Source: Elusimicrobiota bacterium (GTDB taxonomy: Bacteria > Elusimicrobiota > UBA8919). From it: a DNA stretch of 64,000 bases. The notes below the pieces were generated by a model. That model made no database searches. It saw only the letters and a list, made by a program, of their open reading frames with translations, and was not told the origin of the DNA. Numbering within the stretch: the stretch's first letter is position 1; the number at the start of each line of letters is the position of its first letter. Shown piece after piece: positions 5,950 through 63,825 of the stretch. Made by a program: the position numbers and the translations under genes. The DNA lies in NCBI GenBank assembly GCA_043802785.1, contig JAZDKR010000024.1:97-64096 (forward strand). The letters run 5' to 3'.

Positions 5950-7194
5950 TTATTTCAGCCACACCAGCGGGTCCTGCGGAACACCATTTTTGCGAAATTC
6001 AAAATACAACGACGCATCCTGCGAATAGACGGAAATACCGACGATACCGATATCTTCACCTTTCTGAATATCCTGCTCCTCTTTAACATTTATCTTGTCA
6101 AGATTACCATAAACCGTGTAAAATCCGCCGGAGTGGTCAATAACAACCATTTTTCCGTACGACTTAAAATCGCCCGCAAACACAACTTTTCCTTTGTCAA
6201 CCGCTGCGATATTTTGTCCGAGCGTTGACCTAATCCTGATTCCATTATTTATAATCCATGTATCAAGTTCCGGATGCTTTTGTTTGCCGAAAGTTACAGT
6301 TAAATTATTCCTTAATTCCGACGGTTCACCGTCAATAGGCCATGATATATTACCTTTCTTTTTTGACATTTTTAATCTTTCTAATTGCTCTTCCTCTTTT
6401 TGTCTAACAGTTTTAGTTGCTTTTTTTTCCAAAAGTTTTATTAACTCTGAAAGCATCGTCTCTGAATCCCGCAAATTTGCAACCTCCTGCTCATAAAAGA
6501 CCAGTTTTTTAACTACGGTTGATAATAATTTTTTTTTTTCTTTTTTTTGTCGTGCGTACAATTGTTCAGAGTTTTTTTTCTTTTCTTCAAGTTCTTTTAA
6601 TCCGTTCATCTCCGTTTCAAGTTTTATTTTAATTGTTTCATATTCCTGAACATTTTTTAGCGTCTGCGTGTAAATAAACAATTTTTGCCGTGCTAAAAGT
6701 TGAAGAAACTTATACTGTTTAACCATATCAGCAGACGAATTTGAAGAAAGTATTATTCTTGCAGGATACTGGTCGGTCATGGGTCTCCCTACACCATATT
6801 TATATGCAAATCTTAATTCTTTTTTAAATATATTTTTCCATCTAACCGTTTCAAATTTTGCAGTTTCTAATTTTAATTTCAGTGCATCAATTGATTTTTG
6901 CTGTTTTTTTATTAGTATTTTTGTTCTGTACAATTCGGCTTTTGTGGTTTCAAGTTTCCTTACAGTATTTTCAAGATGCGTTTCAAGAGATGCCTCTTTC
7001 TTCTTTATGGTTTTTATATTATTTTCTTTATGAGAAATTTCCGACTGAACACCGACAAGTTCTTTTCTACTTTCTTTAATTTTCTGTTTATATTCTTTTA
7101 CCTGTTTATCATAATCGGAAGCATAAAGGGCAGGGGTTAGGGTATAGGGTATAGGGTATAGGAAAAGCAAAAACAATAAAATAAATTTTTTCAT
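5950..7194 (-). CDS. envC: Coiled-coil M23 peptidase-domain protein, resembling the murein hydrolase activator EnvC.
   Basis: Signal peptide, a long coiled coil and a C-terminal M23 domain (VVIDHSGGFYTVYGNL). Lies next to ftsX. The N-terminal LYPIPYTLTP stretch is encoded by (GGGTATAG)3. Confidence 0.7.
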   Translation of the reverse strand: MKKFILLFLLFLYPIPYTLTPALYASDYDKQVKEYKQKIKESRKELVGVQSEISHKENNIKTIKKKEASLETHLENTVRKLETTKAELYRTKILIKKQQKSIDALKLKLETAKFETVRWKNIFKKELRFAYKYGVGRPMTDQYPARIILSSNSSADMVKQYKFLQLLARQKLFIYTQTLKNVQEYETIKIKLETEMNGLKELEEKKKNSEQLYARQKKEKKKLLSTVVKKLVFYEQEVANLRDSETMLSELIKLLEKKATKTVRQKEEEQLERLKMSKKKGNISWPIDGEPSELRNNLTVTFGKQKHPELDTWIINNGIRIRSTLGQNIAAVDKGKVVFAGDFKSYGKMVVIDHSGGFYTVYGNLDKINVKEEQDIQKGEDIGIVGISVYSQDASLYFEFRKNGVPQDPLVWLK

Positions 7195-7195
7195 T

Positions 7196-7552
7196 TTATT
7201 TTCTCAATGCTTTCATAAGCGACGATAACATTTTTCCAATTTCTTCTTGTAAACTGCAAACTTTTACAAAACCTTCTTGACTAATATATCCTAAATCTTT
7301 CGCAACCATAACTTGTGTTTCCAATTCTGCTAACGAACCAAATGCTATTGATAAAAACTGTAAATATTCGCCTGTATATTGCCTCCCATATCCTTCCGCT
7401 ATGTTTGATGGAATTGAAACTGACGCCCTTCGCATCTGCGATGTAAGTCCATATATTTCCGTTTTTGGAAAATCCATTGTGGTTTTATATATCAACAATA
7501 CCAACTGATACGATTTTTGCCAAACTATAAGTTCCCGATAACTCTTAAGCAT
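7196..7552 (-). CDS. Four-helix-bundle protein of the family found in 23S rRNA intervening sequences.
   Basis: About 118 aa. The family motifs (IVWQKSYQL ... IPSNIAEGYGR ... FLSIAFGSLAELETQ) are recognisable. Confidence 0.7.
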   Translation of the reverse strand: MLKSYRELIVWQKSYQLVLLIYKTTMDFPKTEIYGLTSQMRRASVSIPSNIAEGYGRQYTGEYLQFLSIAFGSLAELETQVMVAKDLGYISQEGFVKVCSLQEEIGKMLSSLMKALRK

Positions 7553-28196: not shown

Positions 28197-28538
28197 TTAT
28201 CTGATTGCTTCACATCCTCTTTCGCCTGTTCTTATTCTGATACATTCTGGCAAATCCAGAATGAAAATTTTACCGTCACCGACATTACCTGTATTCGCAC
28301 CTTTTATTATGGCATCAACCGTCGGCTTAACAAAATTTTCGTTGACGGCAATTTCAAGACGAATCTTCCTCAAAAGGTTTCCCGTTTCTTTTACGCCTCT
28401 GTAAAATTCGGTAACACCTTTCTGTCTTCCGTGACCTAAAACCTCACTTACCGTGATAAGATTAACATCGGCAAGGTAAAGTTCCTTTTTTACCTCTTCC
28501 AATTTGTGTGGCTGAATTATCGCAATTATCAATTTCAT
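28197..28538 (-). CDS. glnB: Nitrogen regulatory protein P-II.
   Basis: 113 aa; the canonical P-II sequence and length (MKLIIAIIQPHKLEEVKKEL ...). Confidence 0.9.
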   Translation of the reverse strand: MKLIIAIIQPHKLEEVKKELYLADVNLITVSEVLGHGRQKGVTEFYRGVKETGNLLRKIRLEIAVNENFVKPTVDAIIKGANTGNVGDGKIFILDLPECIRIRTGERGCEAIR

Positions 28539-28727: not shown

Positions 28728-29311
28728 CTATTCAATCAAAGTATATGCACCCTCTTGATGCTGGGTCAAATCAAGTCCAATTATCTCATCTATTTCGCTT
28801 ACCCTGACGCCGATGGTTAAATCAACCAATTTGTAAATGATAAATGTCATCGCAAAAGTATAGACAACGGTAACACAAACTGTAATTAACTGCATTATCA
28901 ATTGTTTCGGGTTTCCGAAAAAAAGACCGTTGTTGCCCGCTGGATTTATCAATTTTGAAGCAAAAAGACCCGTTGCCAAAGTTCCTAATATGCCGCTGAT
29001 ACCATGCACCCCAAAAGCATCAAGGGAATCGTCATAGCCCAATTTTGGTTTGATAAGACCGACCGCAACAAAACAGATAACACTAGCCGAAAAACCTATC
29101 AGTATAGCCGATATAACGGCGAAAAAGCAAGCGAGTATCCGAATAAAACCCATTGCAAACTCAAAACGCAAAGAACAATAAAGCACTGCATTAAAATGCC
29201 AAGAACATTTTTTCTTCTAACTATTCCTCCGTAAAAAAATGCAAGCCCTGTCGTCATCAACATCACAAACCCAGCCGATATCAAAACAAAAGCAGTATCT
29301 CCAGAATTCAT
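28728..29311 (-). pseudogene. amtB: Ammonium transporter relic. Only the N-terminal roughly 65 residues and the C-terminal roughly 140 residues remain, in different frames.
   Basis: The two ORFs 29099-29311 and 28728-29186 match the Amt N-terminus (GDTAFVLISAGFVMLMTTGLAFFYGGIVRRKNVL) and C-terminus (DAFGVHGISGILG ...). The span is 584 bp against about 1.2 kb expected. Confidence 0.75.
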
Positions 29312-29465
29312 ATTTCCCCCTAAACAAAAAAGTCCCTAATTCCACTTTTCCCACTTTGGAATTAAAGACCTCAATGTCTAACGAAAATTTTCTAACCGAC
29401 TCTGGCTACTATGAGGACTACATCGTCCTTTACTTTAATTATATCAAAAGCAATATAATTTTGCT

Positions 29466-29588
29466 AATGACTAACTTTTAGATGTTTTTCTCTCCAATCC
29501 TGATGAAGAACAATCGCCGCCATAATAACTGCAAAAAGTATTAACATCCCAAGACCAATATAAAGACCAATATCTTCCATATTCATTC
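29466..29588 (-). CDS. Small hydrophobic peptide of 40 aa (MNMEDIGLYIGLGMLILFAVIMAAIVLHQDWREKHLKVSH), translationally coupled to the upstream gene.
   Basis: An aaaggagaa ribosome-binding site and an ATGA stop/start overlap. Has a paralog at 30560-30652 with the conserved C-terminus KEKHLKVSH. Confidence 0.5.
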
Positions 29589-29786
29589 TCCTTTATCAAT
29601 AATGGTTCCAATAATTACAAATATTATCCAAAAACTCGCACCTAAAAATATCCTGATAATATTTAACTCTCCTGCTACAAAAGAGCCCAAAATAATTATC
29701 GCAAAAACAAAGTTGGCTGCGTTAAAAAATGCTTTTGCTAAATTTTCTCTTTGTTTTTTTGTAAAATTCATTCTGAGCATAATCAT
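29583..29786 (-). CDS. Small two-TM membrane protein of about 62-67 aa.
   Basis: Has a paralog at 30646-30858 (TKKQ(R/K)ENLAK(A/V)FFN ...). Preceded by a conserved promoter. Confidence 0.55.
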   Translation of the reverse strand: MIMLRMNFTKKQRENLAKAFFNAANFVFAIIILGSFVAGELNIIRIFLGASFWIIFVIIGTIIDKGE

Positions 29787-29815
29787 ACAAAATTATCAAA
29801 TTTTGTCAACCCCGT
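29787..29815 (-). promoter_or_regulatory. Sigma70-type promoter, TTGACA-N16/17-TATGAT. The -10 element overlaps the start codon, so the mRNA may be leaderless.
   Basis: Minus strand reads ttgacaaaatttgataattttgtatgattatgctcagaatg. Conserved in the copy at 30859-30887. Confidence 0.55.
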
Positions 29816-30077
29816 CAGAAAGAATTCCAAAATTTCTAACGTGGTCAAGTGCTTTTTTGGTTTTCCCGAATGAAAAATCTTTAATCCCACTTTGGAATTA
29901 AAGACCTCAATGTCTGACGAACATTTTCTAACCAACTATGGTTTGTAAACTATTTTTTAACTAATACAAACAAAATATATCTTGTTACATATTCTCACTG
30001 TTGTCATTGCTTCGTTGTCCCGACTTGTCGGGACTCCTCGCAATGACGCTTTGCATCAATTTACTCCCGAGCGACCT

Positions 30078-30420
30078 TCATATTTCTGTTGGTATAACCT
30101 CTTTTGAGCGAAACTCTTTTGGGACATAAATATATCCGGAATATGGTTTTTTTTCTTTAACAACCATTCCGGCAAGACCTTCGCCTATTTTAAGTGGTGG
30201 TTTTTTCAAATACTCATTTGAAATTGACTGGGAAGCCCTGATTACAAGTTCATTGTTTTCATTTAAAAGCATTAACGAACATATCTTGAAACCAAATACT
30301 TCAGCAGTAATTGTTACAATCAATTTAAGGATATCGTCAAGATAAAGTTCTGAAGTTATTGCCTGTGATATTTTAGTGAGTGCCTCTATTCACTTACACT
30401 TTTTTCTTTCATATTTTTTT
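30078..30420 (-). pseudogene. Truncated, frameshifted paralog of the GAF-ANTAR gene at 24823-25515. Only the N-terminal third remains.
   Basis: About 70 percent identity to residues 30-120 of the full gene, plus an upstream stretch in another frame. No ANTAR domain. Confidence 0.7.
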
Positions 30421-30559
30421 CCTCCACAAAATAAAAAATCCTCATACCGTCTTTGGCGGATGGCAACATATCATCCGCCTATGGCATGAGGACTACATCG
30501 TCCTTTACTTTAATTATATCAAAAGCAATATAATTTTGCTAATGACTAACTTTTAGATG

Positions 30560-30652
30560 TTTTTCTTTTCTATTCTGGTTAATAACAATTCCACCGATAA
30601 CCAAAGTAAAAGCTAACGCCACAAAAAATAACAAAGTAATCTCATTCATATC
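30560..30652 (-). CDS. Small hydrophobic peptide of 36 aa, the second copy.
   Basis: MNEITLLFFVALAFTLVIGGIVINQNRKEKHLKVSH. Same coupling arrangement as the first copy. Confidence 0.5.
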
Positions 30653-30858
30653 CCGTCTCCTGTATCAAGTATCACACCAATAATTAAAAACGCAAGAAAC
30701 AATATTACACCAACAATAAATGTAAATAGCGAAAATTTATCTGGCGTGGCGATTTTTCCTATAATAAGGGAAGCAAAAACAATTTGACTTAAATTAAAGA
30801 AAACTTTTGCTAAATTTTCTTTTTGCTTTTTTGTTAATTTCATTTCTGACATAATCAT
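30646..30858 (-). CDS. Small two-TM membrane protein, the second copy.
   Basis: Paralog of 29583-29786. The promoter TTGACA-N17-TATGAT is conserved at 30859-30887. Confidence 0.55.
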   Translation of the reverse strand: MIMSEMKLTKKQKENLAKVFFNLSQIVFASLIIGKIATPDKFSLFTFIVGVILFLAFLIIGVILDTGDGI

Positions 30859-33295: not shown

Positions 33296-33970
33296 TCACC
33301 TCCAAATGAACCAAACAAATAGATAGGATGTGAAAACGGCAACTAATGTGAATGGCAGTCCGATTTTTACGAAATCAAAAAATTTTACGGTATAGCCCTC
33401 TTTTTTTAAGATGCCGCAGGCAACGATATTTGCCGATGCACCTATTGGCGTAATATTCCCTCCGATAGATGCACCTATCAAAAGCCCGAACAAGAATAAC
33501 GACGGACTGACACCAAGATTTGTCGAGACGGACATCGCAACAGGCAACATCGCAGCAAGGTACGGAACATTGTCTATAAACGCCGACAAAAATACAGACA
33601 GAAAAACAATCGCCGTAAAGCCGAGAAATATATTTTGTCCTATCAAACCAGACAGAAATACCTATATTTTTAAAATCCAGCCGTTTAATGTAAGTCCGCC
33701 AACCAAAATAAAAATTGCCATCACATTCCAGTTGATAGCCCAGAAAGCATTTTTTTGTGAAACTGCACCAACCAAAATTAAAATAATTACACTAAGAATT
33801 GAGACCTTTGTTCTTCGGTGGGGAAGTATTACAAAAAGTATGTATGCGAGCAAAAACACAGCAAGAGAAATAAACTCTTTGTTCATAGTAAATCTGATCC
33901 TTTGCGTTTTATCGTCCCATATTTCGTATCTCGTGTAGGGCAAACCTTCAGGTTTGCTTATTGTTCGCAA
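33296..33970 (-). pseudogene. ArsB/NhaD-superfamily permease relic. The N-terminal and C-terminal roughly 100 aa remain; the middle is deleted.
   Basis: Two ORFs (33662-33970 and 33296-33646) match the N-terminus and the C-terminus (IDNVPYLAAMLP ...) of anion-permease-type transporters. About 0.67 kb remain of an expected 1.2 kb. Confidence 0.6.
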
Positions 33971-41548: not shown

Positions 41549-42348
41549 CTACTTCTTTCTGTATGCCTCTAAATATGAGTCGCAATAAAGTTGTTTGCCG
41601 AGGAGCAGTTCTGTTGTTATCATTGAATTCATCAATTCTTTATCAAGTGGATTTAAAATTGCAGCGTCAAGTCCTGCCTCCAAAGCCATAACAAGAAATG
41701 TTCTGTCAACGAGCATTCTGTCAAGTGTTCCCTGTGACACATTTGACAAACCCAAAATTGTTTTCGGAGGTGGGTCGCAAATAATTTTACATTGTTTGAT
41801 TGTTTCCAAGACAGCACGGGAATGATCCTGGGCAACATTTACAGGAAGAATAACCGCATCAATATAAAGATTTTCCATCTCAATTCCATACTCCATTGAT
41901 GAGCAACTATATTCGCCGCAATCTCTAACCGTGCTTCTGCATTCGCAGGAACTCCTGACTTAGTCATTGTCAAAGCGATAACTTTTGAGTTGTATTTTTT
42001 TGCAAGAGGAAGAAGAACATCAAGTTTTTCTTTCTGCCCTGAAGTAGAATTCAAAAATGAGCCGGGACCTGCCAATGAAAGCCCTCTTTCCATAACAACT
42101 AATTTTGTCGTGTCAACAGCGAGTGGTTTATCAGTCACTTCACGAATTACCGTAATTAACCATTCCATATCTTTCAATGGATCTATTGATGCTGGTCCCA
42201 CATTTACATCAAGGACATCAGCACCTGCTTCTAATTGTTTTTTCGCAAGTTCCTGAATTATCAGTTTGTTTTTTGTCTGAATTGCTTCACTGACATTTTT
42301 AAACATCCCGTTAATCTTTTCACCGATAATAAGCATAAACACCCCCAT
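41549..42348 (-). pseudogene. Pterin-binding methyltransferase (MeTr/AcsE-like, methyltetrahydrofolate:corrinoid methyltransferase family), split by a frameshift near 41839-41896.
   Basis: N-terminal MLIIGEKINGMFKNVSEAIQ ... LDVNVG and a C-terminal half in the second ORF. The frames overlap by about 58 nt, with no homopolymer at the junction. Confidence 0.6.
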
Positions 42349-53537: not shown

Positions 53538-54866
53538 TTATTCTCCATCCTCTACATACGACAGTCCAATAAAAAAAGTAATCGGTAATAATATACGCGC
53601 GGTCGTTAAATTATTCTCAAAAAAACCGGCAATCATCAGCATTATGATAGAATACCCAACAGCAAGGTTTAGTGTGCATCTAACACTTCCTTTTTCAGCC
53701 ATCCGTGCACGCTTAAACGCCATTATGGAATTGCCAAACCAAAACAGGACAAAAAGAATTAAACCAATTAAACCCTCGCTAACACCGACATTCAGATATG
53801 TATTATGCGGATGTCCCTTGAGTACATTTAATATATCTTTTTCACTACTTCCCCCTTTATAACACCTGGAAACAATCCATAATAACGGATATTGCTCCTT
53901 TTCCTTTTCAAAATATACTTCTACCTCTTTCCCCCAATTTTCATAGCCGACACCAATTATAGGATGGTTTTTCATTATTTTCAATGCTGTTCCCCACATC
54001 CATAATCGCTCAACATTACTTAAATTTTCTTTCGTATCAAATATACTTATAATTCTACTTTTTATGCTGAAAGAATACTTAAATATACCAATAAACAAAA
54101 GGAAAATCAATCCGGTTCCTAATATGAACCATTTTATTTTTTTTCTCAATAGTATCAATAGTACCGTCAATAAAGTTGCTACATAATATGTTCTTGATCC
54201 ATTCAAAAGAACCGCAATAAAATTAAGCAACGTCAAAACAAATAAACCAACTTTTATTTTCACATTTTCATTAGAATAACAAAAAAATATAAAAGATACT
54301 ATTGCTATTATACTGTAATACCCTCCGGTGTGTAAAAAATTCCTGAAATTCAAACCGATAAATCTGCCGTTTATAAACGGTTGGTTTTTCAAAAATGGAT
54401 AATCAAAATGAAAAATATGCTGTAAAATCCCCAGCAATACAACAAAAGAAGCAACAACCAAAGTAGAATAAACGATTACTTTTATTTTCTTGATATGTAA
54501 CTGCGGAATAACAAAATACGGAAGATGATCCCAAAATTTCCCTCCGTATTTAATCCAATTTGAAGGATTAAAAAAAACTCTCATTGCACGCCAAAAATAA
54601 AGAAAAAGCAGCGGCAACCCTTCCCAACTGGAAAAAAACTTCTTTCCCAACACGAGATTTATTAAAACAATTAAAAGCAGCAAGCCCAGAATAATATTAG
54701 TAACAGCAATTGAGATTGATGTACTTACACCATAAATAACAAGAAGTATAAATATCGTATCGGTAAATATTTTTTTGTCAGTCAGAATGTTTTTCATATC
54801 TATTTTGTCAACTAAATTGTAGTTGCCTGATTTATCAGGCATAACATCGCCCAATAAATTGGGCAA
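53538..54866 (-). CDS. O-antigen ligase/polymerase family membrane protein. The likely start is MKNILTDKK, near 54797.
   Basis: About 10 TM helices and a periplasmic loop with HPHNTYLNVGVSEGLIG. The reported N-terminal 23 residues are encoded by a miniature element. Confidence 0.65.
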   Translation of the reverse strand: MPNLLGDVMPDKSGNYNLVDKIDMKNILTDKKIFTDTIFILLVIYGVSTSISIAVTNIILGLLLLIVLINLVLGKKFFSSWEGLPLLFLYFWRAMRVFFNPSNWIKYGGKFWDHLPYFVIPQLHIKKIKVIVYSTLVVASFVVLLGILQHIFHFDYPFLKNQPFINGRFIGLNFRNFLHTGGYYSIIAIVSFIFFCYSNENVKIKVGLFVLTLLNFIAVLLNGSRTYYVATLLTVLLILLRKKIKWFILGTGLIFLLFIGIFKYSFSIKSRIISIFDTKENLSNVERLWMWGTALKIMKNHPIIGVGYENWGKEVEVYFEKEKEQYPLLWIVSRCYKGGSSEKDILNVLKGHPHNTYLNVGVSEGLIGLILFVLFWFGNSIMAFKRARMAEKGSVRCTLNLAVGYSIIMLMIAGFFENNLTTARILLPITFFIGLSYVEDGE

Positions 54867-54870
54867 CTAC
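54819..54870. repeat. GTAGTTGC/GCAACTAC miniature element. It supplies the TAG stop of the capD-like gene.
   Basis: Sequence gtagttgcctgatttatcaggcataacatcgcccaataaattgggcaactac. Confidence 0.8.
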
Positions 54871-56721
54871 TTGTCTATATTCGCGGGGGCATAATTGGGA
54901 ACCATTTCTTTTAATTTAAGAATGATTTTTTCCTCGTCCATTATAACAGCAAAATGCTCCAGTTCCCTTATATCTTTCCTGATTTTAGATGGGTCAAGAT
55001 TTTCAGGAGTGGTTACATATATTTTTCTATGCTTTGTAATTTTATCTTTTTCTTTGTCCAAAAGTATTTCTTCGTAAAGTTTTTCGCCGGGACGAAGTCC
55101 AACATATTTAATTGAAATATCTTTGTCTAATTTAAGCCCCGAAAGAGCAATAAGGTTTTTTGCCAAATCAACAATTTTTATCTGCTCACCCATATCCAAA
55201 ATAAAAATTTCGCCGACGCCAGAACCCATCGCACCCGCCTGTAGGACAAGTTGCGCCGCCTCGGGAATACTCATAAAATATCTTCGAACATCCGGGTGAG
55301 TTACCGTTACAGGTCCGCCATCCTCAATCTGTTTTTTGAACAATGGAATTACGCTGCCTGTTGAACCGAGAACATTTCCGAAACGAACCGCTATAAACTT
55401 TGTTTTGCTGAACCCTGCTTTTGCCTGCAAAATTTTCTCCGCAACCCTCTTTGTTGCACCCATAACATTTGCTGGATTGACTGCTTTATCGGTAGAAATA
55501 AGAACAAACCGTTCAACTTTGTAATGATGTGAGGCATAAATTAAATTTCTGGAACCAATAATATTATTTTTTATCGCCGAGACCGGATTTTCTTCCATCA
55601 GAGGAACATGCTTATGCGCTGCAGCGTGAAAAACGACATCCGGCCTGTAAGTAAAAAATATGTGCCTCAATAACCCGACATCCTTTATATCTCCAATTAT
55701 TGTCTTATATTTCAATTGGGGATAGAGGGTGGAAAATTCAACTCCGAGATAATAAACATAATTTTCGTGGTTATCCAAAAGAATCAAAAGTTCAGGCGAA
55801 AATTTCACTATTTGCCGACACAACTCCGCACCAATTGAACCACCGGCACCGGTGACCAAAACCCGTTTGTTTCTGATGTAGGAACTTATTTCCGTTTCGT
55901 CTATTTTTACCGATTCCCTGCCCAACAAATCATCCGGCTGAACTTTGCGCGGCTTCACTTCAAGATGCCCGGATATTATTTTATCAAACCCTGGAACGAT
56001 TTTTATATTTGCATCCGTCATCTCGCAATACGAAAGAATGTCTCTTATTGCTTCGCCTTTCACAGACGGTATTGCCAAAATTATTTCTTCAACATCGTAT
56101 TTTGAAACCACATCAGGAATAATTTTTCTGCCACCGAAGATTTTCAAACCGAATATAGAATGCCTTTTTTTGGCAGTGTCGTCGTCAATAAAACCGACTA
56201 TATTCAAGCCAGCGAGCAAATTATTCTGACACTCCCTCAAAACCGCTATTCCCGCCTGACCCGCACCGACAATCAGAACATTCTTTTTTTTTTGTTGTCA
56301 GTGATTCCTTGAATCTTTCTCTTATTAAACGGGTAAAAAACCTGACACCCGATACAAAAACAGTGCACAAAATAAAGTCAATTATGAAAACGGAACGAGG
56401 AAATCCGAAAAAAGTATGATAAAAAAATACGGTTGCAGCGAAAACGACATTAGCAAGAAAATTAGCGAGTATTATATCCCATAAATCGCCAATACTTACA
56501 TATCTCCACAAACCTGTGAACAGTCCGAAAAAATAAAAGAAAAGAAGTTTTATGATAATCAAAAACGGAAGAGTTCTTAAAATAACTTGCCAGTTTTCAG
56601 GAAAAAATGTAAATTCAAACCGAAGATAAAACGCCGAGATATATGCAATAATGATCAGGCACAAATGAAGCAGCACAATCAGAGGCCTTCGTAAATTAAC
56701 TATTATTTTTTTTATGTTCAT
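54867..56721 (-). pseudogene. CapD/WbpM/PglF-like membrane-anchored polysaccharide dehydratase, split by a +1 frameshift at an A10 tract (56284-56293).
   Basis: The N-terminal ORF (56221-56721) has 4 TM helices. The C-terminal ORF has the SDR dehydratase domain. The alternative frame across the tract reads KNVLIVGAGQAGIAVLRECQ. A9 would restore the reading frame. Confidence 0.75.
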
Positions 56722-56745: not shown

Positions 56746-57336
56746 TTAATGCTGAACACCTTCTTTTCTAATAACCTTCAGAACAGTCAAAAGAATGATG
56801 TAAATATCAAAAACAAAAGAGCGGTGATTGAAGTAATACTCTTCAAAAGAAACTTTTACGGGAATTGGTAAGTCATCTCTTCCATTTATCTGTGCCCAAC
56901 CGGTAACTCCAGGAATCAGGTTATGAATATTTTTTTTAGTTCGTAATGCCACCAGATCATCCTGATTAAATAACGCAGGACGAGGACCAACAAAACTCAT
57001 ATCGCCCTTAAGGACATTAAATATCTGAGGAATTTCATCAATGCTGTATGCACGCAAGAACTTTCCGATTGAGGTCAAGTAAATTTCTGGATCCTTCATT
57101 AAGTGAGTTGCCAATTGAGGAGTATCAATTTTCATAGTCCTGAATTTAGCCATTTTGAAAATACAATTGTTCCTGCCAATACGATTTGTCCAGAATATAA
57201 CCGGTCCTTTGGAAGATAATTTAATTGCCGCGGCAATAACCAGCATAGGGATACTAAATAAAACTATCAAAACCAAAACCAATATTAAATCAAAAATGCG
57301 CTTTATCATCACATGCAGCTTCAGAAATTGCATCAA
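56746..57336 (-). CDS. Bacterial sugar transferase (initiating phosphoglycosyl transferase, PglC/WbaP C-terminal type). The likely start is MIKRIFDL, near 57309.
   Basis: SIDEIPQIFNVLKGDMSFVGPRP. Confidence 0.8.
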   Translation of the reverse strand: MMQFLKLHVMIKRIFDLILVLVLIVLFSIPMLVIAAAIKLSSKGPVIFWTNRIGRNNCIFKMAKFRTMKIDTPQLATHLMKDPEIYLTSIGKFLRAYSIDEIPQIFNVLKGDMSFVGPRPALFNQDDLVALRTKKNIHNLIPGVTGWAQINGRDDLPIPVKVSFEEYYFNHRSFVFDIYIILLTVLKVIRKEGVQH

Positions 57337-57385: not shown

Positions 57386-58522
57386 CTAAGACAAAAGTTC
57401 GGGTAGTCGCCTTAGCGCATCTTCTATGGGAAGAATTGAAATTTTGCCATCTCTCATTTCACGACTACCTCCATATACAAAATATGCCTTTGACATATGG
57501 TAATCTGCAAGAAAAGACTTTAACCCTTTTAACATGCCCCCTGAAATCCTATTAGTTCGTTTAATCTCAAAAACACAAATCCCTTTATCCCCGTATAACA
57601 CAAAATCCACTTCCGCATTGTCAGCCGTCCTCCAATAGTATATTTTATATCCTAGCCCGTAATCGGTATTTGCGGCATTGAGTTCTTGGAAAAGAAGCGT
57701 CTCGAGACTGATGCCTTCTATTTCTTCGGGCATATCCAAAGGGCCCGCAGGCCTTAAAGTGCGGTAAACTCCCGCGTCAAAAAAATAGAATTTAGGATGA
57801 CCAATCATACGTCTCTTTGCTTTTTTGACAAAAACAGGCACCCTGTAAGCCATAAGCAACTCTTCTAATATTAAAAAGTAACTTTCCACAACCTTGCGAT
57901 CAACGGAACACTCCCTGGCAACCGACGAGATATTAAGGATTGATCCTTGCGAAAAACTTGCTGCTTCAAGGAAACGGGCAAATCCCGCTAAATTTCTGGT
58001 TAAGCCCTCCTGTTGTATTTCCTCTTCCAGATAGGTCTTTACATAACTCTCAAGATATGCCTTTGGATCTTTTTCCATATAAACACTGGGCAACTGTCCA
58101 TATTTAAGCGAATGCCCTAAATTAAAATCTTTACCTAATTCCGATACAGTGAGCGAATGCATATAATAGGTAAGGGCGCGGCCGGCCAGTAAATTTTGTC
58201 CTTTTCTCTTTATCTTTCGCGCATTTGAGCCGGTTAAAATAAATTTATATTTATATTTCTCTATCAAGCGGTGAACCTCATTCAATAGTTCGGGCACTCT
58301 TTGTACTTCATCTATAATAATCCAGTCCTTAAAACCTTCAGGGATTAAGTTTTCTAGCCGTTGCGGATTAGCCAGAAGGTTATTAAAAAGCTCCGCCTCT
58401 AATAAATCCACATATACAGCTTTGGGAAAAGCAGACTTTACCCACGTGGTCTTACCTGTGCCTCGCGGACCAAATAAGAAGAAACTTTTACCTTCAGGCG
58501 AGTGAATTAATCTGGAATACAT
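57386..58522 (-). CDS. AAA+ ATPase (COG1373-like, AAA_14/DUF4143), the second copy in the window.
   Basis: GPRGTGKTT ... IIDEVQRVP ... TGSNA. Confidence 0.55.
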   Translation of the reverse strand: MYSRLIHSPEGKSFFLFGPRGTGKTTWVKSAFPKAVYVDLLEAELFNNLLANPQRLENLIPEGFKDWIIIDEVQRVPELLNEVHRLIEKYKYKFILTGSNARKIKRKGQNLLAGRALTYYMHSLTVSELGKDFNLGHSLKYGQLPSVYMEKDPKAYLESYVKTYLEEEIQQEGLTRNLAGFARFLEAASFSQGSILNISSVARECSVDRKVVESYFLILEELLMAYRVPVFVKKAKRRMIGHPKFYFFDAGVYRTLRPAGPLDMPEEIEGISLETLLFQELNAANTDYGLGYKIYYWRTADNAEVDFVLYGDKGICVFEIKRTNRISGGMLKGLKSFLADYHMSKAYFVYGGSREMRDGKISILPIEDALRRLPELLS

Positions 58523-61906: not shown

Positions 61907-62926
61907 TTATTTTCCATGCACCTTCCGCATCCACGCTACATACCTCCGAACGCCTTCTTTGATATCAATTTGAGGATTATGCCGTAAATCTCTGCGGCTT
62001 TTACTAAAGTCAACCAATTTCACACGAGTAGTAAAATTCTCCTCTCCTTTATATAGAGCGAGCGACTTATCGGCTTTAGTTTCTTTCAAAATAATTTCAG
62101 CAAGCTCTTCAACGCTGATTCCCCAATCTTCCTTTCCTCCTATATTATAAACTTCTCCGGGAATAAAGTTGTCTACGATGTTTGCAAAAGTTCGACAGGT
62201 ATCTTCTACATAATCAAAAATACGCATATGTCCACGATAAACGGTAAATTTTAACCCATGCAAACAACTATATACTATAATGGGAATCACACCCCGATAA
62301 CGGCTATAATATTCATGCGGCCCATAACAGCCAACCGGCCTAACCCGCACAGTCTCAGTATTAAACATTATCTCGGAGTTTAAACACTGCAATTCTCCTG
62401 CCCACTTTGATATCGCGTAGTCATTCATCTGTTTTATTGCAACTTTCTCCATTACATCTTCGGTCATCAATTTATCATAATCACCATAAACTTCAGCGCT
62501 ACTGAAAAAAATCATGCGAAAATGATGGATTTCCTGAAGACGAAGCATGTTTTTAGTGCCGATGACATTAGTCCGCCAAAGATTCTCATAGTGATCTTCG
62601 CCATTCCAACGGCCATACTCAGCCGCTAAATGGTACACATAATCAAATTTATGATTGCGAAAAATCCAATCCATCTGCTGATAAATTCCTGTATCAGCCT
62701 TGAAGTGTTTAGGGTCTGCTCCCTGAAGTATGTCGCAGGTCCAGACATCATGCCCGCGTGTGCGTAATTCAGAGACCAGATTTGTCCCGATAAAACCTAA
62801 CCCGCCGGTAACTAAAATTTTTAACATGGCTTCATTTCTCCTTTGCTTAAATTTCTTCTGCCGCGCGCATATATTGAACAGTTCGCTTAATTCCGGTTTT
62901 AAAATCATACGGTAAAGGTGCCGCAA
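61907..62926 (-). CDS. NAD-dependent epimerase/dehydratase (SDR). The likely start is MLKILVTGGLGFIGTN, near 62827.
   Basis: Rossmann motif, YAISK. Confidence 0.65.
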   Translation of the reverse strand: MRHLYRMILKPELSELFNICARQKKFKQRRNEAMLKILVTGGLGFIGTNLVSELRTRGHDVWTCDILQGADPKHFKADTGIYQQMDWIFRNHKFDYVYHLAAEYGRWNGEDHYENLWRTNVIGTKNMLRLQEIHHFRMIFFSSAEVYGDYDKLMTEDVMEKVAIKQMNDYAISKWAGELQCLNSEIMFNTETVRVRPVGCYGPHEYYSRYRGVIPIIVYSCLHGLKFTVYRGHMRIFDYVEDTCRTFANIVDNFIPGEVYNIGGKEDWGISVEELAEIILKETKADKSLALYKGEENFTTRVKLVDFSKSRRDLRHNPQIDIKEGVRRYVAWMRKVHGK

Positions 62927-63825
62927 TATCCATAATCGGCTGAAGATTAAACATATATTCCGTGCGGATGTTATTAAGCCTGAAGCTGGTTAAGGGAAAC
63001 TTTTTCCATCCCAAAGATTTAACTACATCCCCGCTTTTTGCTACTAATTTAACGGACCAAAGCGGTAAATGGCGGATTTTTCTTACCCCTAACACCGATT
63101 GGACTTCATTGGCAAATTCGTACAAGTCTACCGGAGGGCTATCCCCTAAATAAAAAACTTTTCTGTCTACCTTCTCAACCGAAGCCAAAAGTAATTGCTG
63201 AATTTGATAAACCATATTTTCCACATACCCCATTGACCTTTTATAATGCCCTGAGCCGATATGAAAATACCAATTACGAGATACTGACTGAAAAAAGTTT
63301 TTGTAAGGTTCTTGTGCATACGGCCCCCAGACTGAAATCGGCCGGATGATTGTCCATGTATAAGGTAAATCCTTCGCCGAACGGACAATCTGTTCTCCAC
63401 GAACCTTGCTTTGTCCGTACAATGTAGTAGGATTATATTCACTATCATCTTTAGGAATATACCCCATTTTGCAGACAAGCAGTGATGAAGTAAATATAGC
63501 ACGCTCAACAGACGGCACTTCCCGCAAAATCCGCACAATACTCTCCACCCCATTTATATTTGCCGCAAAATCACTTAATAGTTTCTCATCCAATACAGTT
63601 TAAAATAACTTCCGGTTTAGTTTTACCAAAAACCTTTTCAAGATTAGGAAAATTCAATACGTCAATATTTTCTATCACCTGATTCGCGTTTTTAAGCAAA
63701 TTAAAATTCTCATAATCATCACGGCAACCTCGGATTGTAGCATATGTCTTGGGAAAACGAACAGACAAATATTGCCACAATTGATGACCAAGCATTCCGC
63801 TTGCGCCTAAAATTATTATGCGCAT
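62847..63825 (-). pseudogene. SDR-type sugar nucleotide reductase/epimerase, split by a frameshift at about 63586-63593.
   Basis: The N-terminal ORF MRIIILGASGMLG (Rossmann fold) and the C-terminal ORF with YGQSK overlap by 8 nt in different frames. Confidence 0.55.

Follow-up and report, generated by a model that had tools for sequence, protein, structure and literature searches.

An A10 run interrupts the reading frame of a PglF/WbpM-type dehydratase gene in a surface-polysaccharide cluster of an Elusimicrobiota bacterium

Long adenine runs inside coding sequences have been described in two settings that bear on the locus reported here. In the O-antigen cluster of Vibrio cholerae O1, wbeL (A8) and manA (A9) are poly-A contingency loci (Seed et al. 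2012, PMC3441752); each of the 37 O1 strains has the tract, phage selection has yielded frameshift variants, and manA has been shown to revert (PMC3441752). In tssM1 of Citrobacter rodentium, about 20% of products regain the frame through slippage at an A11 run (PMC4256274). Here, we examine a 64,000-nucleotide (nt) stretch of DNA from an Elusimicrobiota bacterium (contig JAZDKR010000024.1, positions 97 to 64,096 of the forward strand; hereafter the window), in which an A10 run interrupts the gene for a membrane-anchored dehydratase of the CapD/WbpM/PglF type, with a UDP-GlcNAc 4,6-dehydratase activity predicted from its sequence. Our preferred reading, to which we give slightly less than an even chance, is that the window carries a recent and real slippage allele with one extra A at a lineage-specific hot spot of this gene, reversible and possibly leaky. 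It is an ordinary case, in that poly-A frameshifts in O-antigen genes and transcriptional rescue are both already documented, and it opens no new question. The gene and its parts are as follows.

54867-56721, minus strand: whole PglF/WbpM-type gene of a predicted UDP-GlcNAc 4,6-dehydratase, 617 amino acids (aa) if the run is A9
56284-56293, minus strand: A10 homopolymer (T10 on the plus strand), the site of the frame change; in frame if A9 or A12
56221-56721, minus strand: upstream open reading frame (ORF) of 166 aa, NCBI MFH0947874.1, annotated as a hypothetical protein
54867-56297, minus strand: downstream reading frame of 476 open codons, bounded upstream by TGA at 56298-56300

The run is a T10 on the plus strand, where it occupies exactly 56284-56293 in the context ...CATTC TTTTTTTTTT GTTG..., and because the gene lies on the minus strand, it is an A10 in the sense orientation (ACA-A10-G). 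The 166-aa ORF ends in ...KKKECSDCRCGSGGNSGFEGVSE at a TAA stop (56221-56223). Its residues 1-146 are the authentic N-terminus of the protein, with four hydrophobic transmembrane (TM) segments and the linker ...RERFKESLTTKKK, and what follows is an out-of-frame tail of 20 residues (23 with KKK). The downstream frame, which begins directly after a stop and reads QQKKKNVLIVGAGQAGIAVLRECQNN..., codes KKKNVLIVGAG..., the rest of the CoA_binding_3 domain and then the Polysacc_synt_2 catalytic domain, and it is open as far as the stop at 54867. A preliminary description of this DNA had placed a frameshift of the gene at this very run and had seen, in the other frame, a Rossmann start running into a 457-aa ORF. 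Both observations hold, and the 457-aa ORF is the downstream frame counted from an internal TTG at 56240. The 457-aa and 166-aa ORFs are identical to MFH0947873.1 and MFH0947874.1, respectively, of an Elusimicrobiota metagenome-assembled genome (MAG); the two proteins, annotated separately, are halves of one gene, which is a caution for MAG annotation.

When one A is removed in silico (A9), the two frames join into a protein of 617 aa, close to the roughly 620 aa that the preliminary description had expected from nine As, and when two are added (A12), the product has 618 aa. Restoring the frame therefore means a change of -1 nt or +2 nt, i.e., a +1/-2 shift of the reading frame. The repaired 617-aa protein aligns end to end with intact relatives at 86-88% identity. 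In the alignment to 16 intact relatives, the switch of frame coincides with the tract (...ESLT(T/V)K(K/R)KNVLIVGAG), and because it falls exactly there, the frame change is not a chance coincidence of two ORFs. The Pfam domain CoA_binding_3 (residues 78-243 of the repaired protein) crosses the frame junction and is followed by the Polysacc_synt_2 short-chain dehydrogenase/reductase (SDR) domain (residues 287-570, E 2e-117); the two are continuous in one polypeptide only with one A removed and lie in two frames as sequenced. We tested all homopolymers in the window with A/T runs of at least 6 and G/C runs of at least 5 (n=357, including 43 of length 8), and the A10 at 56284-56293 is alone among them in fusing two halves of one domain when its length is changed. 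Three other tracts were flagged, each at a junction of separate genes.

The assignment to the membrane-anchored dehydratases, also proposed in the preliminary description, is borne out by these domains, by sequence similarity to a solved structure and by the catalytic motifs. As in PglF of C. jejuni (PDB 5BJU), WbpM of P. aeruginosa and CapD, four TM helices precede a Rossmann-like linker domain and an SDR catalytic domain, and the neighbouring genes encode a small phosphoglycosyl transferase and a Wzy_C protein; the difference is that here the reading frame is interrupted. The four hydrophobic segments (approximately residues 5-40, 44-73, 80-102 and 104-130) lie where relatives align. The best solved relative of the repaired protein is the catalytic domain of C. 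jejuni PglF (5bju_A, E 1.5e-89, residues 258-602), while matches to the NCBIfam models PseB and FnlA fall under their equivalog cut-offs, as expected for a different subclass. The TDKxnMx3K signature, which marks the WbpM/PglF class among nucleotide-sugar dehydratases (PMC8987622), is present as TDK...Mx3K with Met replacing the catalytic Tyr. Three motifs can be placed on the gene.

56250-56267, minus strand: GAGQAG glycine-rich motif of the first Rossmann-like (CoA_binding_3) domain, starting 6 codons past the tract
55830-55850, minus strand: GAGGSIG NAD(P)-binding motif of the catalytic SDR domain, intact (residues 291-297)
55449-55493, minus strand: TDK...MGATK (TDKxnMx3K) catalytic signature, intact (TDK 410-412, MGATK 420-424)

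The positions of these motifs bear on the idea that the gene now works as a split pair, in which a soluble C-terminal enzyme would be started at the TTG at 56240, overlapping the end of the upstream ORF, with only the anchoring lost. The catalytic domain and its motifs are intact, the 457-aa product is annotated as a protein by NCBI, and, according to the passage of PMC8987622 that cites Creuzenet and Lam 2001, the C-terminal region of WbpM keeps full dehydratase activity in vitro when the membrane part is removed. However, the sole canonical start is this TTG, and the first Rossmann-like domain of any product begun there lacks its GAGQAG strand. Furthermore, no convincing Shine-Dalgarno sequence was seen by eye before the TTG, and of the 120 best homologues, every other one is either a full-length protein in one piece or a fragment at a contig end. 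We thus regard a functional split gene as very improbable.

None of the closest homologues, which share 86-88% identity and come from groundwater and other metagenomes, is interrupted; they are 613-620 aa long and encode the linker without a comparable run. It is coded as AAAAAGAAAAAT, AAAAGGAAAAAT or AGAAAAAAGAAT, the three basic residues being written AAA-AAG-AAA, AAA-AGG-AAA or AGA-AAA-AAG, and all readable relatives break their Lys codons with AAG, AGG or AGA. In the 135 homologous loci whose linker could be placed, no A run within the 45 nt before the Rossmann motif exceeds 6; these loci represent other species, not strains. The same tract, which the preliminary description had proposed to look for in related strains, is hence absent from these relatives. 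In one of them (L006), the linker reads ATA AGA AAA AAG AAT, from which a single AGA to AAA transition gives A9 and one slip gives A10. Because no relative has a run longer than 6 and because this one transition and one slip suffice, the tract is thus a lineage-specific accident of Lys/Arg codon choice. The window has 38% GC, and AAA makes up 81% of its Lys codons. If this history is true, a single synonymous-like change (Arg/Lys, AGA to AAA) would be enough to make a slippage hot spot that then fires. Two truncated homologues, P0141 and P0140, were considered as a second split at the same site and rejected; P0141 diverges after RERTKID and has no K run.

Apart from the frameshift, the gene shows no decay. 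We find no second stop or indel in the repaired gene, and its motifs are all intact. In pairwise Nei-Gojobori comparisons of the repaired gene with its six closest relatives, the ratio of nonsynonymous to synonymous divergence (dN/dS) lies within 0.08-0.13, as it does among intact relatives, and three-point arithmetic on the pairwise distances gives about 0.07 for its terminal branch, with dS values of approximately 0.9-1.1 that are near saturation. Neither estimate shows relaxed selection, with the proviso that a very recent relaxation would be invisible because dS is near saturation. The frameshift is therefore either very recent, or not real, or function is kept despite it.

The second of these possibilities is that the organism truly has A9 (or A12) and an intact gene of 617 aa (or 618 aa), and that the consensus miscounts the longest runs. 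Homopolymer length is a classic weak point of long-read consensus, the sequence comes from a MAG and is represented by one contig only, the gene is flawless apart from the frameshift and strongly constrained, and the break falls at the second-longest homopolymer of the window. In addition, two other genes in the window have isolated frameshifts that may be consensus indels. Against such an error, all 43 runs of length 8, the four of length 9 and the one of length 11 are in frame within ORFs. Long-read errors usually shorten runs, whereas here an A9 would have been read as longer than it is. Elsewhere in the window there are also a large internal deletion and an in-frame stop, lesions of types that sequencing error does not produce. 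A generalised homopolymer error can be dismissed, as only 1 of the 357 runs splits a gene internally and the other 356 do not; because of this, the assembly is not generally wrong at homopolymers. We consider a miscount at this one run unlikely, though by no means negligible.

Our preferred reading, a real slippage allele, would run as follows. The enzyme is predicted to make the 4-keto-6-deoxy-N-acetylhexosamine (4-keto-6-deoxy-HexNAc) precursor of a surface polysaccharide. In this lineage, its Lys-rich cytoplasmic linker TTKKKN may have come to be encoded by an uninterrupted A9, which equals the length of the RNA:DNA hybrid and would be a hot spot for polymerase slippage, and the sequenced allele would then have gained one extra A. 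At the DNA level, A10 is an OFF allele, giving the four-helix anchor and 20 junk residues with a stop 22 codons past the tract, and the premature termination could bring polarity onto the Wzy_C gene. The event would be recent because nothing else in the gene has decayed, and the allele should be reversible by replication slippage because the tract is long. It is probably leaky as well, because slippage by RNA polymerase would leave a small share of the transcripts with A9 or A12 and these would give full-length enzyme. If the extra A is real, the dominant population would have the first committed enzyme of a 6-deoxy-HexNAc surface sugar turned OFF or strongly throttled by its allele, with a changed O-antigen or glycan and hence a changed susceptibility of this groundwater-type Elusimicrobiota to phages and predators.

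Several points weigh against this reading. Strong purifying selection fits equally a gene that is truly an intact A9 or an A10 gene that stays functional. Only six runs of at least 9 are available as controls for homopolymer accuracy, and if the frameshifts in the two other genes are assembly indels, an error here becomes more likely beforehand. Any leak could be small or modest because it needs -1 or +2 nt, while slippage by RNA polymerase, which genome-wide rises exponentially with run length, gives mostly +1 insertions (PMC5574713). Finally, we found no reads and no second assembly of this organism in the collections searched, which leaves room for a run-length miscall. Exact-product look-ups of both ORFs and of two neighbouring genes returned no conspecific sequence, and both ORF clusters are singletons. 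Among 5.8 billion protein clusters, the GTDB genomes and the JGI metagenomes, no conspecific protein or contig was present and only other species were found. Searches with the full-length and the N-terminal protein gave nothing above 88% identity across the junction; one fragment of 92% identity, which does not include the junction, appeared in the full-length search only.

The preliminary description had gone further and proposed a phase-variation switch. The part of this claim that stands is mechanistic, since an A10 is prone to slippage and reversible; that the tract is a maintained contingency locus is not supported, given the lack of any run above 6 in the 135 loci, the depletion of long runs in this genome, the lack of a stimulatory RNA structure beside the tract, and the four or five further broken or remnant genes of the window, whose lesions do not lie at homopolymers. 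Under such an evolved contingency locus, selection would keep the tract, and slipped-strand mispairing would turn surface-polysaccharide synthesis ON (A9) or OFF (A10 or A8), for instance when phages attack. One trait of contingency loci is present, namely a repeat within a coding sequence whose gain or loss of units toggles the frame (A10 out of frame, A9 and A12 in frame), such that a change of one A in either direction is sufficient. The tract also sits in a surface-glycan operon, and the purifying selection on the gene implies that the ON state matters. The poly-A tracts of O-antigen genes are a direct precedent (PMC3441752). As in V. cholerae wbeL and manA, a gene for surface-polysaccharide biosynthesis has the poly-A run within its coding sequence, a change of one base truncates the protein soon after the tract, and slipped-strand mispairing is the mechanism. 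Unlike in V. cholerae, the tract is found in no relative, and one allele is known, the out-of-frame one. A second broken gene of the cluster, an SDR epimerase at 62847-63825, hints at ongoing variation of the locus, but its break is not at a repeat. Retention of the tract among relatives is likewise not observed in the 135 loci of other species, and an enrichment of tracts, in surface or variable genes, is not observed within the window.

This last comparison was made on the 50 intact genes of the window by shuffling synonymous codons. Sense-strand A runs of at least 9 are depleted (5 observed versus 10.8 expected, P ~0.01), whereas A 8-mers are in excess (32 versus 20.7 expected), with a sharp cut-off between the two at the length of the RNA:DNA hybrid. 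In the same genes, KKK is broken by AAG in 13 of 15 cases. Such a depletion is the pattern expected if runs that reach the hybrid length are costly, and it is the opposite of the enrichment of contingency repeats. The other runs of at least 9 in the window are found in genes for an M23 peptidase, a UDPGP protein, an amino-acid kinase, a 2Fe-2S thioredoxin-like protein and an NTP-transferase, and these other long runs (four A9 and one A8-G-A11) are in frame within intact housekeeping ORFs. Taken with the absence of the tract from every relative examined, these observations make an evolved contingency locus improbable, and nothing we observed indicates that the tract is kept by selection as a switch. 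The longest homopolymer of the window is the A8-G-A11 at 6529-6548 (T11, C, T8 on the plus strand), which codes RQKKEKKKLL in frame; its host is an intact 414-aa coiled-coil protein that, by eye, looks like a peptidase of the M23/EnvC type.

A further alternative is that the A10 gene works because RNA polymerase realignment, or ribosomes that shift by +1 on AAA-G or slide on poly-A, restore the frame in a set fraction of products. Frameshifts at poly(A) tracts of insect endosymbionts are reportedly rescued by polymerase infidelity, as Tamas et al. are said to have described in 2008, and Blochmannia vafer is said to be a further endosymbiont case. We know of no tssM1-like recoding in this phylum or in a glycan pathway, and if recoding were true here, it would place such a case in the glycan pathway of an uncultured Elusimicrobiota. 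Two traits of slippage rescue are present: an A run of at least 9 lies exactly at the frameshift, and the gene is otherwise intact under purifying selection, with no second lesion. The locus also resembles tssM1 and the endosymbiont frameshifts in that the premature stop follows a few codons downstream (22 here), in that the ten As match or exceed the RNA:DNA hybrid in length, enough for RNA polymerase to realign, and in that the host genome has other pseudogenes. As in tssM1, where about 20% of the product is frameshifted at the A11 and neither product is dispensable (PMC4256274), recoding would yield two products, the 166-aa membrane anchor and the full enzyme. The locus differs from these systems in that rescue would need -1 or +2 nt, not the favoured +1 insertion.

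Folding of 60-140 nt around the tract gave no stimulatory RNA structure beyond shuffled controls (z -0.5 to +0.3), and no well-placed Shine-Dalgarno-like element was noted by eye. With no flanking structure above that of the shuffles, nothing beyond the run itself suggests programmed recoding. A programmed ribosomal frameshift site was accordingly rejected, as there is no structure, no stimulator for a possible +1 slip on AAA-G and no such site in relatives. The site is conserved in no relative, and one genome is too few to demonstrate selection for the shifted state. We therefore hold recoding to be distinctly improbable. The same low probability applies to A10 as a selected working state, in which a fixed, low ratio of full-length dehydratase to free four-helix anchor would throttle the supply of O-antigen precursor.

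The genes around the dehydratase form a surface-polysaccharide (O-antigen-like) cluster, and its two immediate neighbours are as follows.

56746-57336, minus strand: small Bac_transf phosphoglycosyl transferase (PglC/WbaP-C-terminal type), directly upstream in the same operon direction
53538-54866, minus strand: Wzy_C gene (O-antigen ligase/polymerase family), downstream and abutting the dehydratase stop codon

The order of transferase, dehydratase and Wzy_C genes also occurs in relatives, with the transferase adjacent in L001 and L002 and Wzy_C as a neighbour in L001-L004, and glycosyltransferases and several SDR sugar-modifying enzymes are encoded around these three genes. L001 and L003 carry a DegT aminotransferase in the stretch upstream of the phosphoglycosyl transferase; in contrast, none was seen here beside the dehydratase or among the scanned ORFs of the window, in a scan that covered part of the ORFs. 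Scans for promoters and terminators gave background level only. An AAA_14/DUF4143 ATPase gene (57386-58522, minus strand) lies between a 321-aa SDR gene and the phosphoglycosyl transferase.

Four or five other genes in the window are disrupted or are remnants, none of them at a long homopolymer. The SDR epimerase/reductase of the polysaccharide cluster (62847-63825, minus strand) is split into ORFs of 79 aa and 248 aa by a frameshift near 63590 (ATTGGATGAGAAA) with no homopolymer, and the fusion matches Pfam Epimerase continuously over 1-235. A Pterin_bind (methyltransferase/FolP-like) gene (41549-42348, minus strand) has a frameshift of the 1-nt deletion type at approximately 41895-41900 (CATCAATGGAG), and its fused product matches profile positions 24-243 continuously. 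These two frameshifts could be either real or artefactual. The ammonium-transporter (Amt) remnant at 28728-29311 (minus strand) consists of a 70-aa ORF that corresponds to profile positions 1-59 and a 152-aa ORF that corresponds to positions 271-399, with about 210 internal residues missing; it adjoins glnB (28197-28538) in a nitrogen cluster with genes for P-II, glutamine synthetase type III, GAF-ANTAR and glutamate dehydrogenase proteins. A CitMHS/ArsB-type permease gene (33296-33970, minus strand) that lies upstream of a gene resembling RnfB is broken by an in-frame TAG (33662-33664), covers only positions 1-183 of a profile of 336 and is probably a pseudogene remnant. An apparent in-frame TGA at 33296 was considered as a further lesion and set aside, as it is the true stop before the RnfB-like gene. 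Large deletions and nonsense codons are not types of sequencing error, and gene loss in this genome, to which a GAF-domain fragment (described below) also points, is real.

Nearly all credible genes of the 64 kb are on the minus strand, and the plus strand is T-rich (T 20893 versus A 18730). The stretch at 29239-30858 is poor in genes. It includes a fragment of a GAF domain (30078-30323) and two copies of a pair of small ORFs (67-70 aa with a weak DUF6722-like match, and 36-40 aa) at 29464-29786 and 30539-30858. The flanks of the pair are repeated as well, and both plus-strand ORFs end in ...EDYIVLYFNYIKSNIILLMTNF. Between the M23 peptidase gene and an FtsX-like gene, a 118-aa protein (7196-7552, minus strand) matches the 23S_rRNA_IVP/bAvd-like family, a four-helix-bundle family that includes accessory proteins of diversity-generating retroelements (DGRs).

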